Below are positions 17,822 through 24,000 of a stretch of DNA of 24,000 nt, one piece after another. Origin of the DNA: Acidobacteriota bacterium (GTDB taxonomy: Bacteria; Acidobacteriota; Vicinamibacteria; Vicinamibacterales; UBA2999). A program made the position numbers and the translations under genes. The DNA lies in NCBI GenBank assembly GCA_022842985.1, contig JALHON010000025.1, forward strand, positions 4,360-28,359, written 5' to 3'. The notes beneath the pieces are model-generated. The model saw only the letters and a program-made list of their open reading frames with translations, did not search any database and was not told the DNA's origin. Position 1 is the stretch's first letter; each line of letters starts with the position of its first letter.

Positions 17822-20050
17822 CTACCGCACGACAACCGCGATGTCGTCGGAGGCGATGCTGGCGCCGGCTGCGTTCAGCGCATGCACGCGCACGTAGTAG
17901 GTGCCGGGTGGCACGTTGCCGAACGACACCTGCGTCGCCGCACCGAGCGTGACTTGCGCCAGGTTGGAGAGCCCTGGCCCGGAACCGGCCACCAGACGGT
18001 GGCCTGTCACCACCCCCTGCCAGAACGGCCACCTCCACGTGAACGTGACCGTGCCGCCCGAGACTGTTGCCTGCAGGTCCTCGGGGGCGTATGGCGGCGC
18101 CGGCACGTTGCCGACGTGCAGCCGCACTTCCGGCGACGGCGGACTCATGCCGGCGGCATTCGCCGCACGCACCCGCAGGAAGTAGACGCCAGGCGGCACT
18201 GGCAGGTAGGTGAATGCCGGCGCAGCCACTGGCAGCGTCAGGCTCGTCACTCCGGTGGCCGGGCCAGCCTCCACGAGGTAGCTCGTCGCCACGCCGCCTA
18301 CGTAGGGCGGTGTCCAGGTCAGGGTCAACCGCGACCCGCTCATCCACCCCTCGATGAACGGCGGAGCGGCTGGCGGTGCACTGCCCTGTGTGGTCACGAC
18401 CACCTCGATCTCGTTCGAGGCAGCACTCATGCCGTAGGCGTTCACCGCACGCACACGCACGTAATAGCGGCCCGGCCCGACAGGCGAGGCCACGAGCGAC
18501 TGATTGGCGGTCTGCAGAACGACCGCCGTCGTGCCTGGCGCGAGCCCCGCCTCGAGGAGGAAGTGTGTGACGTCAGGCCCTGGCCGGTTCCACGAGAGTG
18601 TGACGGCGAAGCCCGCGACGGCCGCCCGCAACCCGTCAGGCGCCGGCGGTGGCACGTCGCGCCGAAGCGAGAAGCTGATGCCGGTCGTGACCGCGCCCGG
18701 CGCCACCGCGATCGGTGTGCCCAGCGTGCGCAGCTCGGCCTCGGTGCAGCGGGCCTCCGCGCACGGGATGTCGTCGAAGATCTCGCCGTTACGAGGGAAG
18801 TCGCTCACGTAGACGAAGTAGGTGCCGCCCGGGAGTCCGGGCAGGACGTATTCGCCCGAGGCGTTGGTGGTGGCCCAGACGACCTGGAAGGCCGCCCCCG
18901 AGGCCCTGACGACGCCCCGGACGTCGATGCCTGCGAGTGGCGTCAGGGTCGAGGCATCTCTGACCACACCGGAGATCCCACCGCCGGGAGACAACGCCAC
19001 ATCGCGGCCGGATACCGTGGCGCCGGTCGCGACGACGATCGGCGTGCTCGCAGCGACAGCCACCGGTTGAGAGGCGCACACCGCCTGCAGACACGGGATG
19101 TTGCCGTAGAGCGCGGGCACGTGGCTCGAGTCCTCAGTGATTGCCCAGAGGTAGTAGGTGCCTGCGGGAAGTCCGCCAGCGTCGAACCGCCCGGCGCCGT
19201 CGGTGCAGTCATACGCGGCCGCGGTGACGTACCCACTCGAAATCCGCAGAACGTAGACGCAGGCGTTCGTGAGCGGCATCAGCGTCGTGGCATCGGTGAG
19301 GGTTCCGGTGACGTGGGCCCCGGGATCGAGCGCGAAGTCCACTCCGCTGGCGGTGGCGCCGGGCAGCACGTCCACCGGAGTGCCCACCCCGGCGAACACA
19401 TCCAGGAAGCAGCTGCCGCCAGGGCACGGGATGTTGCTGTACACCTCGTCGGCGTAGCCCAGACCGTTTCGCGTCAGCACCTTGTAGCGGCCCGCCGGCA
19501 ACCCTTCGAAGCGGTAGGCGCCGCTGGCGTCGGTCTGGGTCTCGCGCATGATCTCGGCCGGCGGATCCGAGGTGTCGAGCGCGTAGAGCGTCATCACGAC
19601 CCCGGCGAGCGGCGCCAGCGTGCCGGCGGCGGTCACCACGCCAGACACCACACCTCCGCGATCCAGAACGAAGTTGGCGTTGAAGGTGGCGCCCGGGGCG
19701 ACCACCAGCGGAACGCCGGGCCGGCTACCCCGGCACTCCACCTTGCACAACACGTCGCCGAAGGCTTCGTTCGTGTAGCCGAGCGTGTTCCGCGTGTAGA
19801 GGTAGTACGTTCCGGCGGTCAGGCCCGTGAACGAGAAGATGCCGGTGCCGTCGGTCGTGACCGTGCGGTCGGGACCGAATTCACCGGTGAGCACCACGGT
19901 GATGCCGGCCAGAGGATTGCCACGGGCACCAAGCGACACCTCGCCCGCGATCGTGGCGCTCTGGGCCGCGGCGGAGGCGAGAGTGACCACGGAGAAGAGT
20001 GCAGCAAAGAGCGCGCACGTGACGTGTCCGCGCAGCGAGTGGAAAGCCAT
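17822..20050 (-). CDS. Secreted repeat protein: signal peptide, 4 CarboxypepD_reg-like repeats and 3 fibronectin type III domains
   Basis: The signal peptide is MAFHSLRGHVTCALFAALFSVVTLASAAAQ. Four repeats of about 101-112 aa (nt 18656-19957) share PLAG..V.L....TD..G.Y.F.GL.AGTYY and a conserved C-x3/4-C pair. Three FN3-like units (nt 17825-18655) share ...LSW..P....Y.LEAG..PG......VPPG.YYVRVRA.NA.G.S. An AGGGGG Shine-Dalgarno sits 5 nt before the ATG. Confidence 0.85.
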   Translation of the reverse strand: MAFHSLRGHVTCALFAALFSVVTLASAAAQSATIAGEVSLGARGNPLAGITVVLTGEFGPDRTVTTDGTGIFSFTGLTAGTYYLYTRNTLGYTNEAFGDVLCKVECRGSRPGVPLVVAPGATFNANFVLDRGGVVSGVVTAAGTLAPLAGVVMTLYALDTSDPPAEIMRETQTDASGAYRFEGLPAGRYKVLTRNGLGYADEVYSNIPCPGGSCFLDVFAGVGTPVDVLPGATASGVDFALDPGAHVTGTLTDATTLMPLTNACVYVLRISSGYVTAAAYDCTDGAGRFDAGGLPAGTYYLWAITEDSSHVPALYGNIPCLQAVCASQPVAVAASTPIVVATGATVSGRDVALSPGGGISGVVRDASTLTPLAGIDVRGVVRASGAAFQVVWATTNASGEYVLPGLPGGTYFVYVSDFPRNGEIFDDIPCAEARCTEAELRTLGTPIAVAPGAVTTGISFSLRRDVPPPAPDGLRAAVAGFAVTLSWNRPGPDVTHFLLEAGLAPGTTAVVLQTANQSLVASPVGPGRYYVRVRAVNAYGMSAASNEIEVVVTTQGSAPPAAPPFIEGWMSGSRLTLTWTPPYVGGVATSYLVEAGPATGVTSLTLPVAAPAFTYLPVPPGVYFLRVRAANAAGMSPPSPEVRLHVGNVPAPPYAPEDLQATVSGGTVTFTWRWPFWQGVVTGHRLVAGSGPGLSNLAQVTLGAATQVSFGNVPPGTYYVRVHALNAAGASIASDDIAVVVR

Positions 20051-20344
20051 GTCAGCCCCCTCGCAGACCCGGACTCTGTTGGCCAGGAGCCGCTGGTCGT
20101 GCCCGGACCCGCACTCGTGAGGAGCAGCCAGAGTCGTGCCATTCAGGCCGAGGGTGCTGGCGAGGCGAACAGCCCCGGTGCCAGGTGAGGCGAATGCCGC
20201 TCAGGGGATTCCACGGAGACGCCGGAACGAATCCCCGTGTCCCACGCTTGCGCCTTCACGCCGCGCCGCGCTGACTCAGCGGATCGCGCGCACCCGCGTC
20301 GCGTGTGCCGCAAGTGCGTGTGCTAGATTGAGTTATCACCGCGC

Positions 20345-20389
20345 GGAGGGATGGCCGAGTGGTTGATGGCGGCGGTCTTGAAAACCGTT
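20345..20389 (+). tRNA. tRNA-Ser(UGA) 5' portion only; apparently truncated or a pseudo-tRNA
   Basis: GGAGGGA TG GCC-GAGTGGTTGAT-GGC G GCGGT CTTGAAA ACCGT matches the acceptor 5' strand, the type II D-arm and an anticodon arm with anticodon TGA. Downstream I find no GTTCRAnnC T-loop and no TCCCTCC 3' acceptor strand. Confidence 0.5.
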
Positions 20390-20564
20390 GCGGCGCCCCT
20401 CGCGATCCCTCGATCTCCTCACAAACCTGAGTTTTTTCGCGGATCGTGCCCGCGAGCGACTTGGCTGGAGTGGGCTGAAATCGCCCTGTCTTTGCCCGCC
20501 GCAGGGACAATGTCGGGGACAGTGCGACGTCCCTGTTTCGCGCGGCGTCTCCCGCTGCGACAAA

Positions 20565-20589
20565 GGCTGGCCGAAGCGCCCGGCCAGTC
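20565..20589 (-). terminator. Candidate intrinsic terminator of the parDE operon
   Basis: The minus strand reads GACTGGCCG-GGCGCTT-CGGCCAGCC followed by TTTGTC. That gives 7 contiguous GC-rich pairs and a short U-tract, about 35 nt downstream of the parE stop. Confidence 0.35.
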
Positions 20590-20624
20590 GCGGCATGAGG
20601 CGTCGTTGTCGGCGCAGCGGACCG

Positions 20625-20927
20625 CTAGATTCCCTTGAGCACCTGCTCGACGTCCCGCGCGCCGTGCACCACTGCGACGATGGTCAGCGGGTCGCTGGCC
20701 GGGTCGTAGACCACCAGGTAGGACAACACGCGCCAGAACTTCACAGGGCGTTGTGTGAGGTCCTCGCGGAGGTGACCGATCTCGCGATTGGCGGCGAGCA
20801 TCTCGAACGCCTCCTCGAGCGCATCGTAGACCGTGAGCGCCGCGTCGACGCTCTCTTGGGCGATGAATGTCCCGATCGCGTCGAGCTGGTTGCGCGCTTC
20901 CTGCGAGAGCCGGTAGTGCCGGCTCAC
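20625..20927 (-). CDS. parE: Type II toxin, ParE/RelE superfamily
   Basis: 100 aa: MSRHYRLSQEARNQLDAIGTFIAQESVDAALTVYDALEEAF..L...REIGHLREDL....VKFWRV..YLVVYD......LTIVAVVHGARD. This is the typical ParE layout. Its GTG start overlaps the upstream antitoxin stop (GTGA). Confidence 0.8.
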   Translation of the reverse strand: MSRHYRLSQEARNQLDAIGTFIAQESVDAALTVYDALEEAFEMLAANREIGHLREDLTQRPVKFWRVLSYLVVYDPASDPLTIVAVVHGARDVEQVLKGI

Positions 20928-21178
20928 GCGCGCTTCTTGCCCCCGTGCTTCAGGCGCTGCCGGGCCTCGGCCATTGCCTGCGGGCCGTCGTGCAGATCAC
21001 CGGCGAGTGCTTGCACCCAGCCCCGCTCGATCGACGCACTGACGCGGGCGCGCATCTCGTCGTGCTCCTTCAGCAGGCGCAGCCCTTCGCGCACGACCTC
21101 GCTGGCGTTGTTGTAGAGGCCGCTCTCGACCTTTCGATCGACGAAATGTTCGAGCTCTGGCGTGAGTGACACGTTCAT
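20924..21178 (-). CDS. parD: Type II antitoxin, ParD-type ribbon-helix-helix
   Basis: I place the start at ATG 21178, giving 84 aa: MNVSLTPELEHFVDRKVESGLYNNASEVVREGLRLLKEHDEMR... This is the ParD/CC2985-type antidote signature. A GAGGG Shine-Dalgarno sits 6 nt upstream. The listed 200-aa ORF (to 21526) is an upstream run-on. Confidence 0.8.
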   Translation of the reverse strand: MNVSLTPELEHFVDRKVESGLYNNASEVVREGLRLLKEHDEMRARVSASIERGWVQALAGDLHDGPQAMAEARQRLKHGGKKRA

Positions 21179-21219
21179 AGGAGACCCTCGGGCGCGGCGT
21201 GGCGCCACCTTCCCCAAGA

Positions 21220-21246
21220 ATAACAGACTCTGGCAGAGTCCGTTAT
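21220..21246. promoter_or_regulatory. Near-perfect palindrome, candidate ParD operator / parDE promoter region
   Basis: ATAACAGACTCT-GGC-AGAGTCCGTTAT has 11 of 12 positions symmetric. It lies 42-68 nt upstream of the parD ATG in the divergent gap shared with the first metzincin-like gene. Confidence 0.45.
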
Positions 21247-21414
21247 CGAGCCCAGGCGCGGTCTCCTGAGGGCCGGCACACAGCGAGGTTCCGTATCGCG
21301 GACGCAGACGCGCAATCTTCTTGACCGGCCACCCGAGGGGGGTACACTGCCGTCGCCTCCCCACGCCACACTGGCGGCCGATCTCACCCGATCCCCCCAC
21401 GGTCGGAGTTCCTG

Positions 21415-21795
21415 ATGCTCGCTCGATCTTCTGCGCGGTTCCTGGCCGCGTGCGTTCTGGCCTGGTCGACGCCTGCCCTGGCCCAGGTGTCGACGTATCA
21501 CTTCCACACCGACGCCTCGACCGCACTGGTGTTCGAGAAGGTCGGCTACTTCAAGGCCATGCTGCACGAAGTTGGCCATGCCCTCGGGTTGACGCACCCA
21601 TGGTCTCCTCTTAAGGATCAACCAGAGTCTTTTCCGATCAAGCGCGGCGGCACTGTGATGAACGGCTTCGCATTCGCTAAGCCCACTGGAACCCAGCCGC
21701 CCGCCTACTATCGAGATGACCCGTTCGGCAATGTTGCACTGAAGCCGACCATCTGCGATATCTATGGCGTTGTCGATGCGGCGTTCCGCCAGTAG
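21415..21795 (+). CDS. Small secreted HExxHxxGxxH zinc-metalloprotease-like protein (mini-metzincin, copy 1)
   Basis: 126 aa. The Sec signal is MLARSSARFLAACVLAWSTPALA|QV. The zinc motif is HEVGHALGLTH (nt 21565-21597). GTVMN is a Met-turn candidate, and the C-terminal PTICDIYGVV resembles the matrixin DDIxGIQ helix. A GGAG Shine-Dalgarno sits 6 nt before the ATG. Confidence 0.75.
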   Translation: MLARSSARFLAACVLAWSTPALAQVSTYHFHTDASTALVFEKVGYFKAMLHEVGHALGLTHPWSPLKDQPESFPIKRGGTVMNGFAFAKPTGTQPPAYYRDDPFGNVALKPTICDIYGVVDAAFRQ

Positions 21796-22450
21796 CGCCA
21801 CGGCGGTCGCCGTGGCGGTCGCCTTCGGTGTTGCGTGTGCCTCGAGGGGCGCTGCCCCATGGTCACCCCCAGCGCTTGCGCGCCTTCCTGACCTCCCTCC
21901 CGGCCGCGTCCGTGTCGTTGAGGCGGAGTTTCGCAAAACGTTGCGTGAACAGCTTCTGCCTGGCGACGAGGTGGTGCACTTCCTCGCGACGGGGCAACCG
22001 GAGTCCGTGGGCCCGAAGCTCGAGGAGCTCGCGCAGGCGGTGGCGATCTCGGACGAAGTCCTGCTCGTAGAGGTCACCGAGACGAGCACAGAGCTCATCT
22101 ACAAGGAGACCTGGGCGCACACCGTTGTCCGGTCGCGCGTCACGTCGGTGTTCAAAGCGCCTCCAGGGTCCGTTCGCATCGGCGACGAACGCCTGTTCGA
22201 GATCGGCGGCGGGCAAGTCGTGATCGATGGCGTGATCGTGCAGGTGCTCAGCCCGATGCCGTATGCCAAGGGGCGTCGCTACTTGGTGACCTTTGGGCGT
22301 AAGGATTCCTTTGACGGTCTCTACCGGCCCTATGGGGCGATGCCGCTGCTCCAACAGGGGAACTCGTTCCTGGCATATCCTGGGTTCTCCGAGCATCTGA
22401 GTGGTGTCACGATTGATGACGTCCGCCGCGCTGTGAATGCGACACGCTAG
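21764..22450 (+). CDS. Secreted/possible lipoprotein partner of mini-metzincin, unknown family (copy 1)
   Basis: 228 aa. The N-terminus MALSMRRSASSATAVAVAVAFGVACAS is signal-like, with a possible lipobox GVAC. It overlaps the upstream gene by 32 nt. It is colinear with the hand-translated ORF at 23356..24000. Confidence 0.65.
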   Translation: MALSMRRSASSATAVAVAVAFGVACASRGAAPWSPPALARLPDLPPGRVRVVEAEFRKTLREQLLPGDEVVHFLATGQPESVGPKLEELAQAVAISDEVLLVEVTETSTELIYKETWAHTVVRSRVTSVFKAPPGSVRIGDERLFEIGGGQVVIDGVIVQVLSPMPYAKGRRYLVTFGRKDSFDGLYRPYGAMPLLQQGNSFLAYPGFSEHLSGVTIDDVRRAVNATR

Positions 22451-22853
22451 GCGCTCAGTACCTGGCTTCGGAGGATGACGCGAACAGGTAGCCCAAAGTT
22501 TTCGAGGCGATCCTGCTCGGTGTGGCGGCGGCGCCCGACGGCGACAAAGGACGATGCTGGCGGCAAGATGTTCGCGGCGTGTTCACTCGGCGGCTGGTGC
22601 GATTCGCGGCCGCCACTGACGATGTCGTCAGCACCCCGACCGATGAGGCTGCCGGTCTAACAACCGCGCTCGGCGACCCAAGGCCGTGCGATAGAGGCGA
22701 GAATCAACCGCGCGGGCCGAACCATTCGTGCAGCGGTCCTTCAGTCCGCTACCTTTCCGTTTCACGCAATCTGGACGCCCAGGACGAGATGTGACTGACC
22801 GAGTGCATCGCTGATGCCTCCATCGAGAAGTCTTCTCGCATCAACGAGTTGCT

Positions 22854-23372
22854 GTGGAGCGCGAACATCCGCCAAGCGAATGGAGTAACCCCAACGGGCG
22901 ATCGCGCTCCGCCTTTGGCGGCTTGCCCGGCGCTGAGATCCTGGTGGTGACGGGGACAATCTCAGGAACAGTCGCCCGGAGAAAGCAGGACCTCCTTGTG
23001 AATCCCTTGACCAACAGGCCGAGAGTCGGAGGTTTCATAGGCACTACGTTCGCGCCCAACAATCGGGTCTTGAAAGGCGTGATGTTCTTCACGAGCAATG
23101 AGAGCGTCCTGTTGCTCGAAGATGGCTACTACAAGACAACACTTCACGAAGGCGGTCATGCAGTGGGGCTGGACCACCCGAACCTTACCCCACTCTATCC
23201 ACAGGGTATCCCTGGTTGGTCGGCGCGGCCGGTAGGCACCGTCATGAACCCGATGGGCACCCTTGAAAACCCGGCAACTCCAGTACAGGGTCTCGATGAC
23301 TTTCTTAACTTTGTTCCGCGAACTCCAACGAAGTGTGACATCGAGGCGGTGCGCCGTGCTGCAGCGCAATAG
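22854..23372 (+). CDS. HExxHxxGxxH zinc-metalloprotease-like protein (mini-metzincin, copy 2; start uncertain, no signal peptide seen)
   Basis: It has HEGGHAVGLDH (nt 23145-23177), GTVMNP and PTKCDIEAVRR, colinear with copy 1. The frame is closed by TGA at 22812-22814, so there is no room for an N-terminal signal. An alternative start is ATG 23082, preceded by AAAGG. Confidence 0.6.
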   Translation: MEREHPPSEWSNPNGRSRSAFGGLPGAEILVVTGTISGTVARRKQDLLVNPLTNRPRVGGFIGTTFAPNNRVLKGVMFFTSNESVLLLEDGYYKTTLHEGGHAVGLDHPNLTPLYPQGIPGWSARPVGTVMNPMGTLENPATPVQGLDDFLNFVPRTPTKCDIEAVRRAAAQ

Positions 23373-24000
23373 CCGCTACGTGGCCCTCATCGCTGGCGTC
23401 GGCTGCTTCGCGATTTTCTGGATGTTTGGCGTTGAGGTGGGTGCACAAGCGACCTTGCGCACGCGCATGGTGTTTTTCGACACCTTTCCGATTGAAGACA
23501 AGCTGCGCCCCGACGACGAGGTCGTCATTGTGGAGATGCGGGCCGACGAGGCGGTCACCGACAAAGGTCTCTCGGGACTGGCCGCGCTTCGCTCAGCGGC
23601 GCGCCGTCGAACTGCCATGGTTGCGACTGTCGATGTTGCCGACGTAAGGGGCGAATCGGCGTTGGGCGGTGCCTGGGTTCACACGGTCTTCCGAGGCACG
23701 GTGGCTCAGGTTCACCGTATCGGCCCAGACGTGGATCGCCGTCACCGAATACGGAATGGAGAGCGCATCGAGTTTCACGTTAGCGGTGGCGAGATCAAGG
23801 TTAGAAACGTCATCGTCAGGGCGCAACCTGTCATCCCGTTTCCAGCGTCTCGTCAGTACGTCGTGTTTCTGTCTGGCAGACAAGGCGAACAAGGCCTGAA
23901 CGTGACCGCTACACCGCTGCTCGTTGACGGCGAGAATCTCGTTGCCGTGGCGTCGGCGAACAGTTCGATGGCTGGCCTAACCTTGGGAGATCTGAGGCGT
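23356..24000 (+). CDS. Secreted partner protein, copy 2 (3' end outside window; absent from supplied ORF track)
   Basis: Hand translation shows this frame open from 23248 to 24000. From GTG 23356 it reads MLQRNSRYVALIAGVGCFAIFWMFGVEVGAQATLRTRMVFFDTFPIEDKLRPDDEVVIVE...WVHTVFRGTVAQV...GERIEFHVSGGEIKVRNVIVRA...RQYVVFLSGRQG...PLLVDGENLVAV...GLTLGDLRR. Blocks are colinear with 21764..22450. It overlaps the upstream gene by 17 nt. Other possible starts are TTG 23263, ATG 23296, TTG 23311 and GTG 23335. Confidence 0.6.
   Translation, partial: MLQRNSRYVALIAGVGCFAIFWMFGVEVGAQATLRTRMVFFDTFPIEDKLRPDDEVVIVEMRADEAVTDKGLSGLAALRSAARRRTAMVATVDVADVRGESALGGAWVHTVFRGTVAQVHRIGPDVDRRHRIRNGERIEFHVSGGEIKVRNVIVRAQPVIPFPASRQYVVFLSGRQGEQGLNVTATPLLVDGENLVAVASANSSMAGLTLGDLRR

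Follow-up and report, generated by a model that had tools for sequence, protein, structure and literature searches.

TIMPs are commonly held to have arisen in animals, and only a small number of protein inhibitors are known for bacterial metzincins. Here, we analysed a 24,000-nucleotide stretch of an Acidobacteriota bacterium genome (contig JALHON010000025.1, positions 4,360 to 28,359; hereafter the window), the last part of which carries two tandem gene pairs, A1-B1 and A2-B2. In each pair, a gene with a metzincin zinc signature (A) is overlapped by a gene for an exported protein (B). On balance, we take the pairs to be probably orphan cassettes, each consisting of the truncated tail of a protease resembling matrix metalloproteinases (MMPs) and the gene of its cognate inhibitor or immunity protein, which is predicted to adopt a TIMP-like fold.

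The nearest described system is mtz-tim of Listeria monocytogenes (LMRG_00713/LMRG_00714; PMC8235301). According to its authors, no TIMP-like protein had been recorded from bacteria before (PMC8235301), and our own literature search yielded no bacterial metzincin/TIMP-like pair beyond it. As in the A-B pairs, a gene for a secreted metzincin is followed by a promoter-less gene for an exported lipobox protein, the pairing is conserved across genomes and associated with mobile elements, and Tim has a predicted TIMP-like fold without TIMP sequence similarity (PMC8235301); Tim and B are likened here by the description of their folds, not by sequence. In contrast, Listeria Mtz is a small stand-alone metzincin in Firmicutes, whereas A is, in its intact form, the C-terminal domain of a protein of ~1000 to >2000 amino acids from Acidobacteriota-like Gram-negative lineages. 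Moreover, polymorphic or orphan cassette behaviour as seen for A-B is not reported for mtz-tim (PMC8235301).

Among animal proteins, MMPs (MEROPS M10A) resemble A, the tail of which is nearest to MMP catalytic domains and borderline for Pfam M10, and TIMPs (MEROPS I35) resemble B, the predicted fold of which matches TIMP and other NTR modules. In the MT1-MMP/TIMP-2 complex (1bqq), chain M was matched by A and chain T by B. Unlike the animal pair, A and B are encoded by operonic, overlapping genes, and B has no detectable sequence homology to TIMP. B moreover lacks the N-terminal Cys-x-Cys, the conserved cysteines and disulfides and the C-terminal TIMP domain, and carries an extra N-terminal extension of ~40 residues with a near-invariant Arg and Asp.

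Bacterial metzincins linked to an inhibitor gene have precedents in the serralysins (AprA/AprI, Inh), whose signal-peptide-bearing inhibitors insert N-terminal residues into the active site. The serralysin inhibitor forms a barrel of eight strands in place of an NTR/OB fold, and serralysins are substrates of the type I secretion system with RTX repeats; we know of no cassette polymorphism among these pairs. TIMPs, serralysin inhibitors and potempins block active sites in like manner. The potempins of Tannerella forsythia and their KLIKK peptidases share with A-B the bicistronic, overlapping protease and inhibitor genes and the export of the inhibitors, which are lipoproteins (PMC9890683). Each potempin is specific for its linked protease, and PotA, an OB-fold β-barrel, inhibits the MMP-like karilysin (PMC9890683). 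Unlike B, which has ~180 mature residues and is encoded downstream, potempins comprise 98-132 residues, their genes lie upstream of the protease, NTR-type helices are not described for them, and they belong to Bacteroidota and a type IX secretion system (PMC9890683); we detected no similarity to B. By analogy, potempins and serralysin inhibitors can be regarded as functional analogues of B with other folds or gene orders.

Anatomy of the gene pairs and truncation of A1 and A2

An earlier note on this DNA had described two successive gene pairs of one architecture. Its four open reading frames, their motifs and the gene overlaps were borne out (Table 1), as was the similarity of A1 to A2 (40% identity, E=7e-13) and of B1 to B2 (29% identity across 129 amino acids, E=2e-14). 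The metzincin signature recognized in A also proved genuine. The zinc motif HExxHxxGxxH/D of clan MA(M) is present in A1 and A2 and conserved across relatives except for the fragment P0157 (HQLGH), and the candidate Met-turn G(T/S)VMN places an invariant Met, as far as the sequence level allows, at the expected distance from the zinc site. Searches of Pfam and NCBIfam gave only sub-threshold metzincin matches for A1 and A2. Peptidase_M10 (PF00413) scored 21.0 bits for A1 and 13.5 bits for A2 against a gathering threshold of 24.

Table 1. Coordinates of the gene pairs, their motifs and neighbouring features in the window
Feature	Position	Strand	Description
A1	21415..21795	+	126-amino-acid open reading frame; Sec-type signal-like N-terminus, then last 91 amino acids of an MMP-like catalytic domain
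A1 zinc-binding motif	21565..21597	+	HEVGHALGLTH
A1 Met-turn candidate	21649-21663	+	GTVMN
A1 C-terminal motif	21745-21762	+	PTICDI
B1	21764..22450	+	228-amino-acid exported protein; overlaps A1 by 32 nucleotides
A2	22854..23372	+	open reading frame of at most 172 amino acids; in-frame stop at 22812
A2 zinc-binding motif	23145..23177	+	HEGGHAVGLDH
A2 Met-turn candidate	23235-23249	+	GTVMN
A2 C-terminal motif	23325-23342	+	PTKCDI
B2	23356..24000	+	GTG start; 215 amino acids with 3′ end missing; overlaps A2 by 17 nucleotides
Promoter-like site	21321..21348	+	TTGACC-16-TACACT upstream of A1; consensus match only
Spacer between cassettes	22451..22853	.	non-coding
tRNA-Ser(UGA) remnant	20338..20413	+	left edge of island; 5′ half intact, 3′ half replaced by unrelated sequence
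ParE toxin gene	20625..20927	-	type II toxin-antitoxin; Pfam ParE_toxin, E=1.2e-14; island cargo upstream of cassette 1
ParD antitoxin gene	20924..21172	-	Pfam ParD_antitoxin, E=3e-7
Core genes	1-20050		gyrB, gyrA, UvrD-type helicase, glmS, glmU, DUF885, serS, CarboxypepD_reg/FN3 protein

The nearest B1 relative with sequence context (P0002) lies on contig L001, where the homologue of A1 is the end of a >984-amino-acid protein and B opens with the same codons as B1 (MALSMR), within the 3′ part of the A gene. Full-length A genes with an overlapping B occur on contigs L001, L002, L005, L008, L010 and that of P0011. The proteins comprise ~1000-1640 amino acids on these contigs, and the A protein of contig L023, which ends in HEIGHVLGLDDH..SSVMN, exceeds 2065 amino acids. 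Wherever the 5′ end is available (L005, L008), A starts with a signal peptide. The only domains identified, CHB_HEX_C/Fn3_assoc and Ig-like domains, with Big_2, Big_7 and Glucodextran_B among the matches, occupy the N-terminal part and are followed by a long middle region without assignment and by a catalytic tail of ~190-200 amino acids (198 in L001; 188 in the orphan cassette of L008) with the pattern HExxHxxGxxH ... G(T/S)VMN ... PTxCD(I/V). A profile of this tail aligned with the catalytic domains of MMP-16 and MT1-MMP from strand 1 through the zinc site (E about 2e-4), with weaker matches to archaemetzincin, serralysin and karilysin, and two full-length relatives barely reached the Peptidase_M10 cutoff (L008 main, 24.3 bits; L010, 24.1 bits). 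Because the profile aligns with MMP domains and these two relatives pass the M10 threshold, the A tail can be assigned as a matrixin-like (MMP-like) catalytic domain, matrixins being its closest relatives. New here is that such a domain terminates giant proteins of Acidobacteriota-type lineages (L010).

Measured against these relatives, A1 and A2 align as 5′-truncated tails of a large secreted zinc protease, not as the very small, complete metzincins originally proposed. The homology of A1 is confined to 21526-21792, its last 91 amino acids (72.5% identity to residues 894-984 of the L001 protein), and that of A2 to 22980-23369, its last 130 amino acids (81.5% identity to residues 185-314 of the L008 orphan protein); the 5′ 42 codons of A2 (22854-22979) are unrelated sequence. 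On the tail profile of 233 positions, A1 covers 132-233 and A2 75-233. A1 and A2 retain the last 46% and 69%, respectively, of a domain that ends proteins of ~1000 to >2000 amino acids. A1 is without strands 1-4 and helix A, and A2 without strand 1, helix A and strands 2-3, so that neither contains the complete metzincin N-terminal sub-domain of a five-stranded sheet plus helix A. In the MMP alignment, the domain begins at strand 1, ~100 residues upstream of the A1 breakpoint. Both breakpoints are sharp, and the sequence 5′ of each is unrelated, not decayed. On these grounds, neither A1 nor A2 would be expected to be an active protease.

Two other derivations of the 5′ ends were considered. 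Gradual pseudogene decay was rejected for A2, the homology ending sharply with 9% amino acid identity upstream of 22980. For A1, an internal deletion joining the signal peptide of a full-length gene to the tail was considered, and its 5′ region showed no homology to any available A 5′ end. A weak protein-level likeness between A1 (MLARSSAR..VLAWST) and the L001 protein (MPNRRSARGVLALST) had no DNA-level support and was discarded.

It is very improbable, in our estimate, that A1 and A2 work independently as tiny secreted metzincins, each under the control of its coupled B, and that the pair was duplicated long ago and retained. Such a role would fit the intact zinc motif, Met-turn candidate and C-terminal helix of both proteins and the purifying-selection-like constraint on their retained parts. 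It would also fit the expression signals of A1, which has a promoter-like site (the sole sigma-70-like match within 20200-24000, where 0.3 are expected by chance), a GGAG 7 nucleotides 5′ of its ATG and a good Sec signal peptide, and which the NCBI record annotates as a 126-amino-acid gene. However, strand 1, helix A and strands 2-3 are missing from both proteins, A2 has no signal peptide and begins with unrelated codons, and each cassette is nearer to cassettes of other genomes than to its neighbour. The lengths of the fragments also vary: besides the 126 and 172 amino acids of A1 and A2, relatives include A fragments of 96, 292 and 378 amino acids, one of them with the catalytic Glu replaced by Gln. 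Small HExxH reading frames beside B-like partners can, as an annotation lesson, be truncated tails and not mini-proteases.

The 96-amino-acid fragment is P0157, found on a Logan contig, with the Glu-to-Gln exchange in its HQLGH motif. It starts at the Met equivalent to an alternative internal start of A2 (ATG 23082). A further observation concerns a conserved Cys (xC[TV]Pxx[LI]) located ~25 residues N-terminal to strand 1 of the catalytic domain, at residue 762 of the L001 protein (nucleotide about 2285) and in the same column in L002, L005, L006, L008 and L009; it is absent from A1 and A2. Its spacing may recall the cysteine switch of MMPs, or the residue may pair in a disulfide with the Cys of PTxCDI.

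The B family, its predicted fold and its linkage to metzincin genes

B is a conserved, translationally coupled and exported partner of A, as the earlier note had recognized. B1 consists of a signal peptide with a non-canonical lipobox-like site (..GVAC/ASR), a Pro-rich linker of ~22 amino acids and a predicted TIMP/NTR-like OB-fold domain; its gene lacks a separate Shine-Dalgarno sequence. The signal peptide of B2 ends in ..GAQA/T, and its reading frame leaves the window ~5-10 codons before the stop. The public NCBI call for B1 is a 159-amino-acid protein starting at an internal GTG (P0001), by which the signal peptide is removed. A2 and B2 did not surface among the protein-search matches, so the source record may leave them unannotated or label them as pseudogenes.

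Although B had seemed to be of no assignable family, it belongs to a sizeable, unannotated one. Searching exhaustively with HMMER and a profile built from three sequences, we retrieved 331 B cluster representatives at E<=1e-3, 89 of them at E<=1e-10, and mostly of 200-230 amino acids; word-indexed protein searches gave only 2, 5 and 3 relatives, and the family emerged only by the exhaustive search. B had no match in Pfam, NCBIfam, PHROG or PADLOC, 47 aligned members gave no meaningful Pfam match, and neither A nor B was matched in PHROGs, PADLOC, plasmids or phages. A scan of GTDB genomes with close B patterns found nothing; the 47-sequence alignment was too diverse to yield a scanning pattern. 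In most members, the N-terminus resembles a signal peptide, and by a crude heuristic the last AxA-type site precedes the first conserved strand by a median of 6 residues. This strand opens the N-terminal extension (VRxI ... LLPDDEVV), which contains a near-invariant Arg (134/136) and Asp (143/144). Across the 47-sequence alignment, only D68 and G150 are invariant, and there are no conserved cysteines.

With this alignment, AlphaFold modelled B1 at a pLDDT of 86 and a pTM of 0.76. Residues 1-47, comprising the signal peptide and Pro-rich linker, are disordered in the model, and the core is a β-barrel flanked by two helices. When the model was compared with the PDB by Foldseek, the top 50 matches were all NTR/TIMP-fold modules (best E=1e-4, probability 1.0), including the C345C domains of complement C3/C4/C5, the NTR domain of PCOLCE, TIMP-1, TIMP-2 (also as chains of MMP complexes), agrin NtA and meteorin. 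The OB fold with flanking helices is accordingly predicted to be TIMP/NTR-like. The predicted TIMP/NTR fold is unaccompanied by any sequence-level signal to TIMP. As modelled, the likeness is a resemblance of fold, with homology not demonstrated.

The linkage of this family to metzincins is strict in the loci at hand. For 14/14 distinct B genes with readable surroundings, a metzincin-motif gene in the same orientation immediately precedes B, in most cases with an overlap of 14-32 nucleotides. The pairing thus recurs in further uncultured bacteria, mostly on metagenome contigs. The 14 contexts are window cassettes 1 and 2, L001, L002 (also on L003 and L004), L005, L006, L007, the main and orphan cassettes of L008, L009, L010, the P0011 contig, L023 and L021/L022. 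Look-ups starting from B found an upstream metzincin in 8/8 cases, and the alternative that B genes usually occur without A-type neighbours was not seen. Among distant metzincin loci, 0/10 carried B, and a metagenome scan with the A tail gave, among the matches listed, only distant metzincins without B. Because the B-family protein of L021/L022 (P0046, 433 amino acids, with two tandem B domains; L021 7294-11302, L022 2-3914) lies 3′ of a DUF5117+DUF4953 "Met-zincin" protease, the B fold is also paired with a second metzincin family. The suggestion that the pairs encode a protease and its cognate inhibitor is backed by this synteny and by the predicted fold. We have thereby delineated a family, so far without annotation, that comprises at least 331 cluster representatives and has a confidently predicted TIMP/NTR-like fold and a metzincin linkage of 14/14: the window holds truncated relics, yet leads to an undescribed protease/TIMP-fold family.

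A different relationship between the two proteins is offered by Listeria, in which the secreted metzincin cuts the TIMP-like lipoprotein encoded next to it near residues 49-55, freeing the TIMP-like domain (PMC8235301). By this precedent, B would be a substrate or effector, tethered until the metzincin cleaves it, and the freed fragment would act on the cell wall. B1 has a suitable layout, with its lipobox-like Cys, a disordered linker of ~22 amino acids and a folded domain from near residue 48. However, most members of the B family have no such linker, given the short heuristic distance between the signal-peptidase-like site and the first strand, and the truncation of A leaves no protease in the window to process B1 or B2, both of which are intact. 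We therefore consider this mode of action quite improbable for A-B.

Joint divergence of catalytic tails and B genes

Comparison of contigs L001 and L002 revealed a modular pattern. Their A proteins are 86-98% identical over much of the N-terminal region and 30-45% over the last ~300 amino acids, and their B proteins are ~21% identical. At the nucleotide level, identity follows a mosaic pattern, and the blastn alignment stops at L001 position 2020. Across 55 pairs from 11 loci, the identities of A tails and of B proteins correlate (r=0.73). The catalytic tail and B thus diverge together, with the N-terminal part of A conserved.

The window cassettes fall into different groups of this variation. 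Cassette 1 is closest to L001 (A1 73%, B1 63% identity), with homology continuing for ~95 nucleotides 3′ of the B1 stop, and cassette 2 is closest to the L008 orphan (A2 82%, B2 70%; B2 is 67% identical to the B protein of L006). The resulting types are {window 1, L001}, {window 2, L006, L008 orphan} and {L002, L009}. The spacer between the cassettes has neither coding signal nor A/B remnants. The pairs had been interpreted as an old in-place duplication; because each cassette is nearer to cassettes on other contigs than to its neighbour, they are instead better described as two different types of a polymorphic module in tandem, with no local duplication.

Orphan cassettes occur elsewhere as well. 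On L008, a full-length A-B pair is followed by an orphan cassette, composed of a whole catalytic tail without N-terminal domains plus B, and then by B relics, and on L006 a truncated A of 378 amino acids with its B lies directly 3′ of a HigBA module. Some loci show decay: the A gene of L009 (97-3752) has an internal deletion or frameshift, B pseudogene fragments lie 3′ of the orphan cassette on L008 (6495-7739), and a frameshift, perhaps an error of long-read sequencing, splits the B gene of L010 (10725-11487).

In the explanation that we favour, of orphan cassettes with a truncated protease tail and a cognate TIMP-fold inhibitor or immunity gene, intact A would be a Sec-exported protein of ~1000 to >2000 amino acids ending in an MMP-like metzincin domain. 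B, translated from a start inside or just 3′ of the end of A, itself exported and predicted to have a TIMP/NTR-like OB fold, would meet its cognate A in the periplasm or at the envelope, bind the catalytic tail there and block the active site. The catalytic tail and B would diversify jointly and be swapped as a unit, much as a toxin tip with its immunity gene. Neither A gene of the window retains anything 5′ of the region that encodes the active-site helix. Because the A genes are truncated and the B genes intact, the likely functional products of the window are the two B inhibitor/immunity proteins. The A fragments may persist as leader reading frames for coupled translation of B, as substrates or reservoirs for recombination, or as relics of recent truncation, or they may have some other function; the leader idea draws on the missing Shine-Dalgarno sequence of B1.

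Several observations weigh against this explanation. The window contains no full-length A gene. For what is left of A1 and A2, the ratios of nonsynonymous to synonymous substitution rates (dN/dS) are 0.13-0.27, the same as for B, and the A2 branch of the window, at 0.135 versus 0.11 for the L008 orphan, is not accelerated. Because of this constraint, and because A1 has its own promoter-like site, Shine-Dalgarno sequence and textbook signal peptide, the fragments may have some function. On the structural side, AlphaFold gave a pLDDT of only 33 for the full catalytic tail (P0155, 4 sequences), providing neither an A fold nor an A:B complex. The Foldseek TM scores of B1, 0.26-0.37 when normalised to the query and at most 0.58 when normalised to the target, mark likeness at the fold level only, a profile search of B against the PDB was empty, hhalign of B against a hand-typed alignment of TIMP-1/2/3 returned a probability of 0.1, and B is without the N-terminal Cys and disulfides of TIMPs. 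A has no recognised trafficking domain, toxin family or linked secretion system and no Tox-MPTase match. Finally, inhibition of A by B, a role in immunity and antagonism are steps that we infer.

Alternatively, A might be a housekeeping exoprotease acting on nutrients or matrix, with B shielding the producer's envelope during export, no antagonism involved, and the window cassettes being decaying leftovers of transferred copies. The N-terminal domains of A (CHB_HEX_C, Big_2, Big_7, Glucodextran_B) are of a kind usual in secreted hydrolases and adhesins rather than in known modules for toxin delivery, and the decay in L009, L010 and the B relics of L008 is in keeping with such a history. Linked inhibitors of bacterial metzincins have precedent, for example Inh/AprI with serralysins and potempins with KLIKK proteases (PMC9890683; PMC8235301). 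Nonetheless, a housekeeping role leaves unexplained why tail and B diverge jointly and abruptly against a conserved N-terminal region, why cassettes of differing types with intact B stand in tandem (window, L008), and why B remains intact and constrained (dN/dS 0.15-0.20) beside a truncated A. For these reasons, we regard it as rather unlikely.

The modular pattern recalls polymorphic toxins, as defined in PMC4436062. The features of that definition found here are a conserved N-terminal region with a variable enzymatic tip, a co-varying downstream gene (14/14) and orphan modules. Like A, the toxins of the CdiA-CT/CdiI, Rhs-CT/RhsI and MafB-CT/MafI systems are large secreted proteins with a conserved N-terminus and variable enzymatic tip, a small cognate gene lies directly downstream, 5′-truncated cassettes of tip and partner occur, and recombination is mosaic; MafB is a precedent for Sec-dependent export (PMC4436062). 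Unlike these systems, A-B has no known trafficking domain, demarcation motif, secretion system or Tox-MPTase match, and the partner is exported instead of cytoplasmic. As a tentative possibility, the MMP-like tail and TIMP-fold protein may form a bacterial polymorphic toxin/immunity system, in which the tip attacks the envelope of competitors, exported B confers type-specific immunity and orphan B genes accumulate. If true, the inhibitory NTR/TIMP fold would have a counterpart in prokaryotic conflict systems, or might have originated in prokaryotes. If inhibition were confirmed, B would represent a new class of specific MMP-type inhibitors, the pairs would offer a tractable system for the co-evolution of protease/inhibitor specificity, and A-B might be a new type of envelope-targeting interbacterial weapon. 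The large B family and the apparent behaviour of the module as a polymorphic and orphan cassette are new here.

Island context at a tRNA-Ser gene

The core genes of the window have a G+C content at third codon positions (GC3) of 0.85-0.92, compared with 0.62-0.77 in the A/B region. The tRNA-Ser remnant at the boundary is 96% identical across 53 nucleotides to the intact tRNA-Ser of L001, which has its A-B pair 590 nucleotides upstream of that gene. The remnant scores 29.1 bits with the Rfam tRNA model (threshold 29), ARAGORN called no tRNA there, and its missing 3′ half was not found anywhere in the window. Because of the low GC3, the broken tRNA-Ser at the boundary and the ParE/ParD module, we regard the window cassettes as island cargo, which would have come by horizontal transfer into an island at the tRNA-Ser gene.

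The tRNA remnant itself looks like a disrupted integration site. The ParE/ParD pair lies directly upstream of cassette 1, a place taken by HigB/HigA in L006, and in L023 a phage-type integrase gene is found 3′ of B. Two long antisense reading frames, at 21175-22098 (minus strand; 307 amino acids) and 17882-20188 (plus strand; 768 amino acids), overlap real genes and are the usual artefacts of high-GC DNA, without family matches or codon-position signal. The secreted 742-amino-acid protein encoded at 17822-20050 on the minus strand, with CarboxypepD_reg repeats, PKD and FN3 domains, is not related to A and is the product of the last core gene before the island.

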